Below are positions 7,188 through 14,065 of a stretch of DNA of 23,470 nt, one piece after another. This DNA comes from Myxococcota bacterium (GTDB lineage: Bacteria; Myxococcota_A; UBA796; GCA-2862545). A model generated the notes under the pieces. The model ran no database searches, was not told the DNA's origin, and was given only the letters and a program-made list of their open reading frames with translations. The stretch's first letter is position 1; every line of letters starts with the position of its first letter. Location of the stretch: NCBI GenBank assembly GCA_039208735.1, contig JBCCQY010000147.1, positions 1 through 23,470 on the forward strand, written 5' to 3'. The translations under genes were made by a program, and so were the position numbers.

Positions 7188-7784
7188 CTAGGTTTTTCGA
7201 AGACCGTCCGCGGTTAGTGTCCAACCGGGAATCGCAAGGTCGTCCTGACTCCGCTTGGCGCGCGTGAGATCCGCTCTGCGCAAGAAGGCTCGATGGAGGT
7301 TGGCCCCTTCAAGGTTGGCCTCAACAAGGTTGGCGGCTTCCAGGTTCGCCTCGACAAGGTTGGCGCCTCTGAGGTTGGCTTGAAGGAAATTCGCCCGCTT
7401 GAGGTTGGCTCCGCGAAGATTGGCTTCGACAAGTTCGGAATAAGGAAGCTCTGCATCGACAAGCCACGCGCCCACGAGTTGGGCATGGGACAGGTTGACT
7501 CGTGCAAGAAGACCATTCTTGAGGTAGAAACCGTTCGCCACGATTCTGCAACCGTGCATGGCTAAAAGGGTGATGACAAACGCGCTCCGCTTTGCCGAAT
7601 CGGGCGTGCGATGATGGCATTGGTCTGCCAATTGCCGGGTCAGGTGGTCGATACGCTCCTGACGCTTGCGCGCTTCGGCCTGTCGTTTTCTCCAGGCGCG
7701 AATCCCATGCACGAAACCGATCGAGGTTGCCACGACGAGCCCCGCGGCGACCAACATCCAAACGGGCTCAACCACGAATTTCAT
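7188..7784 (-). CDS. Pentapeptide-repeat protein with N-terminal transmembrane helix
   Basis: A-N/D-L-x-x repeats (ANLRG ANLKR ANFLQ ANLRG ANLVE ANLEA ANLVE ANLEG ANLHR) after a hydrophobic N-terminus and a basic helical linker. Confidence 0.9.
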   Translation of the reverse strand: MKFVVEPVWMLVAAGLVVATSIGFVHGIRAWRKRQAEARKRQERIDHLTRQLADQCHHRTPDSAKRSAFVITLLAMHGCRIVANGFYLKNGLLARVNLSHAQLVGAWLVDAELPYSELVEANLRGANLKRANFLQANLRGANLVEANLEAANLVEANLEGANLHRAFLRRADLTRAKRSQDDLAIPGWTLTADGLRKT

Positions 7785-8953: not shown

Positions 8954-9379
8954 TTAGTGCGGCTCGTGGGGGTCTGGTCGGGCGGCAAGGCGAAGGGTCA
9001 GGCCCCAGCTTAACGTCACGTCGGTTCGCTCGACGGGAAGGGGAGGCCGAGAGTCGTGGCGCACAGTCAGACTGCCGGTCATCGACAGTGCCTTGGTGAT
9101 GGTGGACGTAAGCACGAAGTAGTTGATGACTTGGATGTCGCCTGGGTCGTCCACTCTTGGCTCGATGTAGGCCGTTTCCGTCAACGTCAGCTCGTCGGGA
9201 ACGAGGACCCATCGGACCTGGGTCGCGAGCACCACACTCAAGAAGTCCACGTTGCCTGTCGACCAGCTACCGGACGTCGCAAACTGGATGCCGACCCCTT
9301 CCTCCGCGGCGGCCGCCGCCAGGTTGTCGGTATTCACCTGGGCCAAGGCCGCACAAGTCCAAACGAGCAGGCTGGTCAC
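8954..9379 (-). CDS. DUF481-like outer-membrane beta-barrel protein, apparently shortened internally
   Basis: GTG 9379 overlaps the upstream stop (GTGA). Signal peptide ..AALA-QVNTD, N-terminal motif STGNVD, C-terminal motifs ETAYIEPRVDD and HDSRPPLPVERTD..GLTL. Only 141 aa. Confidence 0.6.
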   Translation of the reverse strand: MTSLLVWTCAALAQVNTDNLAAAAAEEGVGIQFATSGSWSTGNVDFLSVVLATQVRWVLVPDELTLTETAYIEPRVDDPGDIQVINYFVLTSTITKALSMTGSLTVRHDSRPPLPVERTDVTLSWGLTLRLAARPDPHEPH

Positions 9380-10053
9380 TCCGGACAAGGGCCGCCGGCC
9401 TCAGCCCAGGTTTCGTAGCGCTCCACCAACTCGGGATGCGAAATGGGGGGAGGCTGTCGTCCCGAGTGCCAGCTTGTAATCAACAAGTGGTCGTGCTCGA
9501 TGTGGTGCGCCAGGTCAGCCAAACCGCGGCCCCCGTTGATTTCCGGATCCTTGAGCTGGGCACAGAGTTGTGCGGCCGTGCGATTCTCGAAGGCCATGGC
9601 CTGTGGAGGCATGCTCCACACCGCATCGGCAGGCGGCAACGGCACTTGGCCGTCACCCACACCCTTGGACGCATGGCACGTGCTGCAGTGCGTGCCTTCA
9701 AGCGGACTGAATCGCGTGACGCCGTAGATGTGCAAATGGCTATCGTCGCCCTGCAGTGGCGCAGGGCCATCGGGGTGGCAGTTCATGCAGCGAGGGTGGG
9801 TGGCCACTGCGTAGATGTCGGCAAAGGCGTCCAGCCCTTCCTTTCGAGACCGCGTCACGGGAGGATTCTCGATGGGCGGGGCCTCGGGGCGCAACGAACC
9901 GATGTGTGCGACGAGCCGGTCGATGCGAGCGTCCGACAGGTTGGCGACCTGTGCTGCCATCGACTGGCCAAGCTCCGCCCCTTCGGGACCCCCGCGCACG
10001 CCGTCGCGGTAATGCCGAGGCTGCCGTGTCAGGTAGGCTGGGTGCTGCTGTAA
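9376..10053 (-). pseudogene. 5'-truncated c-type cytochrome: C-terminal half of a class I (c4/c553-like) domain fused to a diheme isoquinoline-oxidoreductase-associated domain
   Basis: The frame extends upstream of 9999 as LQQHPAYLTRQPRHYRDGVRGG..MAAQVANLSDARIDRLVAHIGSL (class I cytochrome c tail whose CxxCH is absent). Then HPRCMNCH and HCSTCH heme motifs and LCAQLKDPEINGGR. Confidence 0.75.
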
Positions 10054-11554
10054 TGTAGAGCCGGCCGTACCATTCGGTTGGCTTGCCGTCTGGCCCGAGT
10101 CGGGCCTGCATGATGGCGGCGTCGGCGGGACGATACGTCGACATGCGCATCTCCGCCTCCCGAGAGAACGTCATCTTGATGGCGCCGCCGACCGCCTTTT
10201 GAACCTCACAGGTCGTGGTGACGTAATTCAAGGCATCGTAAATGAGCGAGTTGCGCCGTCCGAACGCACCCCCCATGGTGCGGGCGTGCAGCGCCACATC
10301 GTCGACGCTTAGGCCCATGGCATCCGCAATTGCAATACGGGCGTTGATCGGCCCTTGAACGCCCGTCGCAACGTGGATCTTGTCGCCCTCGGGCCAAATC
10401 GTGCAGTTCAGCGGCTCCATTGGTGCATGCGCGAGGAACGGTAGGGAGTAGCGGGCTTCGATGACATCGTCACCCGAGAGTGGACCATCCACCTTGCCTT
10501 CGGAGATGATGGTCGACAAGCTGCCCTTCTCGATTGCAGCAAAGCGCCTGTCCATGAGCGCCGGGCCGACCAGAATGCCATGGTCCGGAGTCTCGGTAAT
10601 GACCTGCGCCTTCTTGGCAGCCCACTCCGCACGCCACACCTTGTCCGCCACGATGGCCACGCAGTTGTCGAGCACGAGCACCGCTTCGACGCCTGGCATC
10701 GCTTCTAGCGCGGCCCGGTTCGCCACGCCGGTGACCTTACCCCCCGCGACGGTGGGTGGAGCAACGGACGCATAGCGCATCCCCGGGACCTCGGCATCGA
10801 TGCCATATACCGGCTTACCAAAGATCTTGTCGGGCAAATCGATGCGATTGTATGCAGTGCCGATGTACTTGTACTCGGAGCGGGGCTTGTAGATGGGCTC
10901 TTCGGGCAACGGAAGGGCAGCCACCTCCGAGGCGAGTTCACCGTACGAGACCTTCTTGCCGCTGGCCTCATGAATCACGTGGCTGTTGCGAGTCACTACT
11001 TGGGCGACGGGAACCCCAAGGGCGGCGGCGCCGGTCTCGGAGAGGAGCATCCGGGCACTCGCGGCGGCCCGTCGGAAGCCGAGCCAACCCGTCGATCGGA
11101 TGGACGAGCTGCCGCCGGTGAACGACAAGGAGGTCAGGGTGGCAATGCGGCCAGCCACACTGCGGAGAAAGGACTCGGACCAGCCCTCGCCCACGCCAAG
11201 CTCCTCGAAGAGTCCGTACAGGATGTCGGGATTGGTGAACCCGCTCAACGAAGGGGCAAGCTCGATGGTGGTGGTCTTTGGGTCGGCATCCAGTTCGTCC
11301 AGCACAATCTGCAGAAGGCTGGTTTGAGCGCCCTGGCCCATCTCGGTGTGGGGGGACAGGATGCGGACCCGGCCATCTGGCTCAACCAGGATGAAGGACG
11401 CGACGAGTTCGGCCGCACTCGGTGGGAGACTTCGTCGCTGGGCCGACCGTTGGTCGTAGGTGTTGACATAGACGCCGAGCCCAACGGACCCGAGGAGCAA
11501 GCCACCGCCAGCGATGCCGCCAGCCATGAGGAGCGTACGACGATTGATTTTCAC
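10054..11554 (-). pseudogene. iorB: Xanthine dehydrogenase-family molybdopterin subunit (IorB-like), 3'-truncated; the frame runs on to a stop at 9740
   Basis: GTG 11554 overlaps the iorA stop. Tat-like RRTLL, EMGQG, TGGSSSIR, FLAHAPMEPLNC, MGGAFGRR, YRPA. Similarity stops after about 500 aa (PTEWYGRLY) and the rest of the ORF is out-of-frame cytochrome DNA. Confidence 0.85.
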
Positions 11555-12314: not shown

Positions 12315-13160
12315 TTAAGAGCCCATTCGCGCCGGGGGCGTTCGCTGCTTCCGGAATCGTCCTGGGGATTGCCCCAATACCCTTTTGAACGCGCGCGAAA
12401 AGGCGTATTGGCTCGTATAGCCAACGTCCTGGGCGATGGACTCTAAGGAGCGGTGTGGGTCGGACACCAAAAGCCGCCCGGCCAGCGACATCCGCCATCG
12501 GCGAACGTAGGCCATGGGGCTTTCTCCCACACACTCCGTGAATCGCCGCGCAAAGAGGGACCGCGAAACCCCCGTCACCTTGGCCAGACGGTCCAGAGTC
12601 CAATTCGTATCGGGCGATCCGTGGATCGCTTCGAGCGCTAGCCCAGCAAGCGCGTCATCGAGACCACGAAGCCAGGAACTGCCGTGGCGTGCCTGTGTCG
12701 TCCCACGGAGGATGGCGACGAGGAGCGCATCGAGCAGACCAGCCCGCATCGGCTCGAAACCAGCCTCTGGCGTCCGCAGCTCCGACACGATGAGCGAGGT
12801 CAAGGGGCGAAGCGCCGAAACCCGTGCCACCGCTTCAGCTTCCAGGTGGATGATATCGGGTTCGCCTGCCCACAAGCTCGTGATGGGGCACCTCGAGCCC
12901 CCAATGACCCCCACGAGCAGGGTGGTTGAATCGGAGGCATCGATTTGGTGGGCCGCGCCGCGAACCAGCAATGCGACCTCGCCCGAGCCAAGGTCGAACC
13001 GCCTCTCTCCGACGCGAAGGTGGACAAAACCATCCACGACCAGCGTGAATACGACGCCCGCGACCGCCTCGCACTGCAGCGTGACCGGACCGTCGACGAG
13101 CTTCAATTCGGATGTCCAAGGGCGGGTCACCGAAATCCAGTCGGTCATCGGGCTGTTCAT
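12315..13160 (-). CDS. AraC-family transcriptional regulator (cupin N-domain plus HTH)
   Basis: GGAG precedes ATG 13160. WLRGLDD..ALEAIH..WTLDRLAKVTGVSRSLFARRF..VGESPMAYVRRWRM..IAQDVGYTSQYAFSRAFKR. Divergent from the NAD(P)H-binding gene. Confidence 0.93.
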   Translation of the reverse strand: MNSPMTDWISVTRPWTSELKLVDGPVTLQCEAVAGVVFTLVVDGFVHLRVGERRFDLGSGEVALLVRGAAHQIDASDSTTLLVGVIGGSRCPITSLWAGEPDIIHLEAEAVARVSALRPLTSLIVSELRTPEAGFEPMRAGLLDALLVAILRGTTQARHGSSWLRGLDDALAGLALEAIHGSPDTNWTLDRLAKVTGVSRSLFARRFTECVGESPMAYVRRWRMSLAGRLLVSDPHRSLESIAQDVGYTSQYAFSRAFKRVLGQSPGRFRKQRTPPARMGS

Positions 13161-13261: not shown

Positions 13262-13999
13262 ATGGAAGTGTCGAAACAGGACTCTGCGCGTCAGACGCTG
13301 GTCGTCTTTGGCGCCACAGGGACCACAGGCTCCCACGTCCTTCGGCAGGCCCTGGACGGAGGGATTTCGGTTCGCGCAGCGGTTCGGTCACCAAACAAGC
13401 TCCCCCCGAACCTCGTGGCTGATCAGCCGCAAGCGAAGCTTGGGCGAAATCAGAACAGCAGCAAGCAGAGCTTGCGCGAGTCTGATCGGCTCGAAGTCGC
13501 CACGGTGGACGTCACCGACACAAATGCCGTGGCACGGGCCATCCAAGGGGCCACGATGGTGTTCGCGGCTTTAGGCTACACGGGAGATCCCGGTCGCCCG
13601 GTGCTCCTCCCCTTCGTGCAAGCGGTAGTGCAAGCGATGCGCGAACACGGGGCTCGGCGGTTCGTTTATCAGGCGTCGGCCTTTAACTCAGAGCCCGGCC
13701 AGTCGAACCCGGTCCACATTCGCTATCTGCTTCGCCCCCTCGTGGGATCCATCGTCGGCGCACATCCCATCTGGAACGAGCATGACGCCGTCATTCGCTT
13801 CCTCGTTGAGGAGGTCAGCGACCTCGAGTGGACGGTCACCCGCCCAGGGATGTTGAGCGACGGACAAAGCAAGGGCGTGCTCGCGGTTCGAGCGACACCT
13901 GGTGGGGGTGTGACCAATCGAGATCTAGCCACCTTCTCCCTAAATGCGGTTCGAACAGGCGACCACGCACGGAGCTGCCCTTACCTCGGCTACCCCTGA
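13262..13999 (+). CDS. NAD(P)H-binding protein (atypical SDR, flavin reductase/BVR-B-like) carrying a 21-aa in-frame insertion
   Basis: GGAG at 13253, ATG 13262. LVVFGATGTTG Rossmann motif, VRSPNKL, DVTD..AV..AI.G, SDLEWTVTRPG, V...DLA.F. Confidence 0.92.
   Translation: MEVSKQDSARQTLVVFGATGTTGSHVLRQALDGGISVRAAVRSPNKLPPNLVADQPQAKLGRNQNSSKQSLRESDRLEVATVDVTDTNAVARAIQGATMVFAALGYTGDPGRPVLLPFVQAVVQAMREHGARRFVYQASAFNSEPGQSNPVHIRYLLRPLVGSIVGAHPIWNEHDAVIRFLVEEVSDLEWTVTRPGMLSDGQSKGVLAVRATPGGGVTNRDLATFSLNAVRTGDHARSCPYLGYP
13420..13488 (+). mobile_element. 63-bp double-hairpin element, copy A (intragenic, in frame), bounded by duplicated (C)TGATC
   Basis: CTGATC at 13419-13424 and again at 13482-13487 (63-bp period). 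63/69 identical to the reverse complement of 13997-14065. Confidence 0.8.
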
Positions 14000-14065
14000 T
14001 CACCCTCGCGCAAGCTTTGCTTGCTGCTGTTCTGATTTCGCGCAAGCTTCGCTTGCCGCTGATCA
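13997..14065 (-). mobile_element. 63-bp double-hairpin element, copy B (inverted, at the stop codon), bounded by duplicated TGATCA
   Basis: TGATCA at 13997-14002 and 14060-14065. The reverse complement reads TGATCA GCGGCAAGC-GAA-GCTTGCGCGA AATCAGAACA GCAGCAAGC-AAA-GCTTGCGCGA GGG TGATCA. Confidence 0.8.

Follow-up and report, generated by a model that had tools for sequence, protein, structure and literature searches.

What this locus asks is how a gene for an ordinary-looking oxidoreductase came to carry a 63-nt stretch that its homologs lack, and whether its product still works as an enzyme. The window (the whole analyzed stretch of 23,470 nt, from contig JBCCQY010000147.1) comes from the genome of a marine bacterium, 9.4 Mb with 64% GC and 93% completeness, and the named homologs are from Myxococcota. 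The host ORF (13262..13999, forward strand) encodes a product of 245 aa, insert included, which matches NAD_binding_10 in Pfam (E 1.8e-28). According to Pfam, the homologs, the AlphaFold model and the fold search, it is an NAD(P)H-binding Rossmann-fold oxidoreductase similar to biliverdin reductase B, the human member of which is the top fold match. A divergent gene on the reverse strand (12315..13148) encodes an AraC-family regulator with cupin and HTH_18 domains (Pfam, gene call) and, given its position, is likely to be the regulator of the host gene. Judging from sequence comparisons, the 63-nt stretch is one copy of a dispersed hairpin cassette, located at a TGATC site, and the enzyme probably tolerates the translated peptide as an added hydrophilic surface loop and still works.

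Two other features of the window deserve a brief mention. On the reverse strand at 9379-11527, an ORF resembling the large subunit of a molybdopterin-type oxidoreductase ends where it runs into the adjacent ORF, which is cytochrome c-like and read in a different frame; a frameshift or truncation is possible. The family names are based on inspection of the sequence, supplemented by one weak Pfam match for the cytochrome. Also on the reverse strand, 15-nt tandem repeats at 7282-7439 lie within a gene similar to pentapeptide-repeat proteins and represent an ordinary coding repeat.

Comparison of the host protein with its homologs, which as a rule have 213-227 aa, allows the extra segment to be measured. 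The preliminary description stated that the ORF passes through 13420-13488 without a stop codon, and this is correct. It also proposed that removal of exactly 63 bp would restore the usual spacing of the family. The stretch is indeed 63 nt long, net of one GATC, while the excess over the homologs is 20 residues and not 21: in 17 of the 21 aligned homologs, including all those with E up to 6e-35, the loop is 20 residues shorter than in the host, and in the remaining four, all distant, it is 22-23 residues shorter (28 database homologs were found, seven of which were left out of the alignment). Likewise, the span from the VR to the DVTD motif comprises 46 residues in the host and 26 in close homologs, as well as in four orthologs from genomes. 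Removal of exactly 63 nt would thus leave the loop one residue short, as a native codon has been lost and the net gain amounts to 20 residues. A similar segment at this position, which would have counted against the preliminary description, is absent from all 21 aligned homologs. A database search with residues 45-84 returned the query protein alone, a weak result, as the other carriers of the same length in this genome were also missed. The database also contains a protein (P0024) whose first 52 residues match the N-terminus of the host and which continues, from almost the same loop, with unrelated sequence.

The stretch corresponds to a cassette, here called A2, which extends from GATC to GATC (13421..13487, forward strand, 63 nt net), is read in frame as residues D54-D75, and differs at three positions from the majority form in this genome. 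GATC is thereby present as a direct repeat at both ends. The left junction is the palindrome TGATCA (13420..13425, from the sequence and the junction statistics) and the right one is TGATCG (13483..13488, from the sequence). Between them lie two hairpins, each with a 6-bp stem, the first closed by a GAA triloop (13429..13443) and the second by a 3-nt loop (13461..13475). A second, inverted A2 copy, 93% alike, is located at the 3' end of the host gene (13998..14064, reverse strand), with its junction overlapping the host gene's own TGA stop codon (13997-13999); the homologs end at the same place. Of the three peptides that had been attributed to other reading frames of the insert, two in fact derive from this second copy. 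Nor is the insert unusually poor in stop codons, as was suggested: four of its six frames are open, but so are at least four in 962 of 5000 shuffled sequences (19%).

A2 is one member of a larger family. The genome contains 22 near-full A2 copies, and all related modules together occupy 101 loci on 65 contigs. The net lengths are 31 nt for A1, 63 nt for A2, about 76-77 nt for B, 34 nt for C, 32 nt for D and about 107 nt for E; every module is bounded by GATC, and the modules join in varied orders and orientations. To judge from its sequence, A2 looks like two A1 units with an altered inner junction, and modules B-D may resemble CGTC cores. In 20 copies, 94% of the cells in the hairpins and the closing stem are paired, and four pairs show two-sided changes (a comparison of two genomes only), three of them in hairpin 1. 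The GNA form of the triloops presumably points to hairpins formed in single-stranded DNA. Copies are clustered: seven neighboring pairs within 2.5 kb were found among 85 sites, compared with 1.6-2.6 expected (p 0.003-0.01), and the inverted A2 pair of the window is one of the seven.

Several additional repeats were noted in this genome. Module E, with two hairpins and an A-rich loop, is present in five or six copies (C18:28380-28489 and contigs C66, C71, C105 and C150). B-like tandem arrays without GATC junctions occur at the starts of contigs C3, C107 and C231, at the ends of C152, C236, C169, C101 and C127, and in C20, C42 and C79; they possibly represent an older state of the family. Genome-wide 20-mer counts revealed two other repeat families with about 28 and 18 copies, similar to CRISPR repeats.

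The phylogenetic distribution of the cassette is narrow. With A2 as the query, matches were obtained in two of 41 relatives, this genome included. A version about 75% alike is present in one of four congeners (G002, assembly 82% complete). A scan of a collection of species genomes with the scaffold pattern yielded 21 stretches, 19 of them in a single Myxococcales MAG, which we did not count as a further genome, and two that look like chance matches; the same pattern gave no match in JGI metagenomes. Module B gave nothing beyond weak, partial matches in five of 400 other genomes of the phylum (two candidates scored per genome). In the congener the unit measures 61-62 nt and frameshifts two genes (L020 and L030). 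A third gene, an ORF for an AAA_21 ATPase (L025:487-2313), remains open through a 62-nt unit (1501-1566). Here the spacing shows a net gain of 21 residues relative to all six scored homologs (two further homolog loci lacked motif matches), and a one-base shift about eight codons upstream of the unit appears, from the sequence, to restore the frame. This ORF overruns the stop codon of its homologs by about 160 codons and thus may be decaying. The congener loci L016-L034 include tandem arrays of two or three units, often with partial units alongside, and in L018 and L019 16 nt of the unit start follow the right junction. Such partial units could stem from an intermediate of rolling or circular form, or from subsequent deletions.

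Analysis of the junctions indicates a defined target. Both outer junctions complete the sequence T-GATC-A in 19 of 32 clean-ended arrays, a few of which have imprecise bounds, compared with 1636 of 55226 other GATC sites (3%). Position -2 is occupied by C in seven of 11 solo copies here and in 16 of 17 in the congener, against a background of about 26% after T, and CT directly precedes GATC in most cassette junctions. The bases outside GATC vary, hence the crossover most likely falls within GATC itself. Entry sites would then resemble the cassette's own end-to-end junction (CTGATCAG). A hyper-abundant target of the HIP kind can be dismissed, as TGATCA is not over-represented in the genome (observed/expected 1.08; 0.85 for GATC). 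Among 29 non-coding clean arrays, 14 overlap a stop codon, compared with 61 of 207 background TGATCA sites (p 0.025). Selection would be expected to produce an excess of this modest size, and a mechanism that targets stop codons is not needed.

How the cassettes move can only be proposed tentatively. They would be non-autonomous, with the crossover within the GATC of the target site, and each entry would leave two usable sites, so that modules could stack. Entry may proceed via a folded single-stranded form, either a hairpin or a circle, on which an enzyme supplied in trans would act, a route to which we give slightly less than an even chance. The search for such an enzyme gave no convincing candidate. 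The Y1_Tnp domain (PF01797) was found in none of the five congeneric genomes, the RAYT model NF047646 has no match in this genome or in G002 (assemblies 93% and 82% complete) and one weak match in the congener G003, and a scan for RAYT motifs yielded four unconvincing matches. GIY-YIG proteins, tyrosine recombinases and reverse transcriptases are present in all five congeneric genomes, with or without the cassette, and therefore do not discriminate. The neighbors of the arrays (30 scanned, ten regions read) are unrelated genes, and among them no pair of modules brackets a transposase; at one cassette copy, an IS630-type gene is found about 470 nt away.

The most serious alternative is that no dedicated enzyme is involved and that the copies arose by template switching during replication at short TGATCA matches, aided by the hairpins. 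The clustering of copies, the window's own inverted pair included, would be expected on this account, as would the partial units and tandem arrays common in the congener, and it agrees with the failure to find a RAYT in either genome. On the other hand, most copies lie on different contigs (65 in total), the preservation of stem pairing across two genomes suggests that a protein reads the fold, and the two assemblies, being incomplete, may simply lack the gene of the enzyme. We consider template switching possible, though somewhat less probable than the enzymatic route.

The fate of the copies that enter genes is more informative about the present locus. Six of 13 solo A2 copies are in frame within ORFs, a sample in which copies in other frames are perhaps undercounted, as the screen of in-gene sites recovers three of six known cases. 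The carriers are the host enzyme, an AAA_24 ATPase, a sodium:solute symporter and three ORFs without a Pfam match, which rest on our own gene calls; the cassette is absent from homologs of the three carriers that have a family. A clean crossover does not account for the net lengths, which deviate by one residue in the host and by two residues in the symporter. All six in-gene copies are in the Asp frame and in the sense orientation, whereas 1029 of 1291 coding TGATCA sites (80%) are in the Ile frame. The peptide of the Asp frame is the most hydrophilic one (hydropathy -1.7); those of the remaining three open frames score +0.2, -0.2 and +1.0. Depending on the assumed target, the chance that six copies would fall into one open class is 0.001-0.008 (calculated post hoc), and for the four young copies alone the frame test gives p 0.016-0.051. 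The A2 copies at stop codons are divided into four sense and four antisense, which argues that orientation is not fixed by the route of entry. In two of the in-gene copies, drift from the majority form has altered 13 and 14 of 67 positions without closing the reading frame. Weak peptide-like matches were also seen inside genes in the same orientation at C47:30275-30311 (E 0.018) and C87:19993-20030 (E 1.1), possibly decayed copies from older insertions.

These data suggest a filter acting after entry. Selection would remove the copies that shift the frame, together with in-frame copies whose peptide is hydrophobic or rich in cysteine or that fall on a buried Ile, and the survivors would be intergenic copies, those at stop codons, and copies read in the Asp frame within loops like that of the host. 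A gene-breaking copy in this genome is found in an FG-GAP gene (C172); a screen of emptied sites by coding score lacked the sensitivity to count such insertions. For the host, we consider it most likely, from the sequence evidence, that the peptide is kept and tolerated rather than excised.

Is the host enzyme nevertheless intact? The AlphaFold model has a mean pLDDT of 89, low only at the N-terminus and in the insert, whose blocks (pLDDT 50-67) are placed between a short helix and strand 3. None of the 87 conserved columns is altered in the host protein, while 13 close homologs themselves depart from the consensus at 1-11 of them, although the homologs were selected by likeness to the host protein, which favors its agreement. 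The model fits an intact enzyme that carries a flexible extra loop, and the earlier suggestion that the insert is tolerated in a surface loop gains support from the predicted confidence profile, from the unaltered columns and from the five other genes with the cassette in the same frame. It could be argued instead that the insert cripples the enzyme, which would make the gene a young pseudogene not yet decayed. The insert lies about a dozen residues past the beta-2 arginine, which we assume helps to bind NADP in this family; furthermore, one native residue is missing, the second copy sits on the stop codon, and cassettes do break genes elsewhere, namely the FG-GAP gene and the two frameshifted genes of the congener. 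Against this, the ORF contains no stop or frameshift, its conserved columns are unchanged, its third-position GC content of 0.71 is inside the range of the genome (10th percentile 0.70), and the preference for one frame in all six genes indicates that their products are under selection. A young pseudogene is therefore improbable.

Even less probable is precise excision at the DNA or RNA level, either by slippage between the GATC repeats or by splicing, that would yield a mature protein without the insert, as the preliminary description had offered as an option. The direct repeats of A2 close a stable hairpin (z -3.0), a layout that favors slippage, and in the congener some genes still contain 62-nt units. 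However, frame and orientation should be irrelevant if the insert were removed, yet they are shared by all in-gene copies; all nine composite A2 arrays are located outside intact genes; old A2 copies that have lost their GATC ends have kept the frame; and removal would give a loop of the wrong length. In sequencing run X1, unitigs span both junctions of 13421-13487 without differences at a depth of about 8, similar to the flanks, and no joint that skips the insert was found in the unitigs or contigs, which drop rare forms; the run is possibly the source of the assembly and hence is not independent of it. Rfam returned no match with E up to 5 in the window segment 13000-14400. An assembly or library artefact, in which GATC-ended fragments were joined in vitro, would account for modules that all end in GATC and join in either orientation, but is extremely improbable, as the copies differ from one another at 0-14 positions, the congener has a diverged family with two-sided stem changes, the placement respects reading frames, and the unitigs cross both junctions.

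The cassette invites comparison with several known families of small palindromic repeats. According to the parts of PMC2229807 used here, the palindromic elements (RPEs) of Rickettsia are located between genes and in frame within conserved genes (19 reading frames), an RPE-bearing guanylate kinase is translated and active with a changed affinity, and the elements are single stem-loops of 105-146 bp, for which the table gives no established target duplication. Like RPEs, A2 is a dispersed palindrome present in frame in unrelated genes (six ORFs) and absent from the homologs of the three that have a family. It is set apart by these descriptions of RPEs in that it has 63 nt and two hairpins, is bounded by GATC, can be stacked, and occurs in Myxococcota. 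The main text of PMC3733652 describes GTAG and CGTC REPs as short hairpins found singly, in pairs as dimers, or in clusters; dimers or groups make up over half of the intragenic inserts and encode 20-30 residues, head-to-tail dimers are rare, REP ends often supply a stop codon, and the CGTC families have no dedicated transposase. The cassettes share with REPs and BIMEs the small size of their modules (31-34 nt net, within the 20-40 nt of such hairpins), the occurrence as singles and composites, and a location near gene ends. They differ in that the modules end in GATC and lack a GTAG or CGTC tag, and A2 resembles a head-to-tail dimer; neither GATC nor a myxobacterial name appears in the main text of that paper.

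For the REP/BIME system of E. coli with its TnpA-REP (RAYT) transposase, PMC3333891 in the portion consulted reports mosaic arrays, tandem amplification and a proposed single-stranded circle, and states that the enzyme cuts at C|T and needs GTAG. The CT that precedes GATC in most cassette junctions recalls this cut site, but the cassettes lack GTAG, their crossover appears to lie within GATC, and no Y1 or RAYT protein was detected in this genome or in G002. Among cyanobacteria, SDR5 is a very small repeat inserted precisely in HIP1, a palindrome with a GATC core that is hyper-abundant in the genomes concerned (PMC4390886, as far as consulted). The target and the size of the present cassette are different, and its TGATCA target is not over-represented. 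A MITE of the DDE type can be rejected, as A2 has only two complementary terminal bases inside the GATC repeat. No description of this family was found in the literature searched, mostly open-access main texts. We conclude that the insert is a passenger of an apparently undescribed, GATC-bounded family akin to RPEs and REPs but a member of neither.

Peptides added to proteins by palindromic repeats are already on record for a few lineages, and the host enzyme itself is an ordinary example of the outcome, with no new function. The locus contributes the frame filter, the correction from 21 to 20 residues, and the contrast between 62-nt and 63-nt units. The family points to a mobilizing route with a GATC core, the enzyme of which was not found. 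A bolder and distinctly doubtful proposal is that single-stranded hairpin cassettes move here by a new recombination system using a four-base GATC overlap, and that the gain of one base, from 62 to 63 nt, turned a breaker of genes into an invader of proteins. If the former were true, the target would be regenerated at each entry and cassettes would stack in any order and direction, similarly to an integron without a fixed array; if the latter were true, the same hydrophilic loop would have been seeded in unrelated proteins. In any case, the family offers an unusually clean natural test of how inserts are filtered, with a defined target and four possible peptides, of which one survives, while copies of different ages and the frame-breaking congener unit, one base shorter, provide further contrast.
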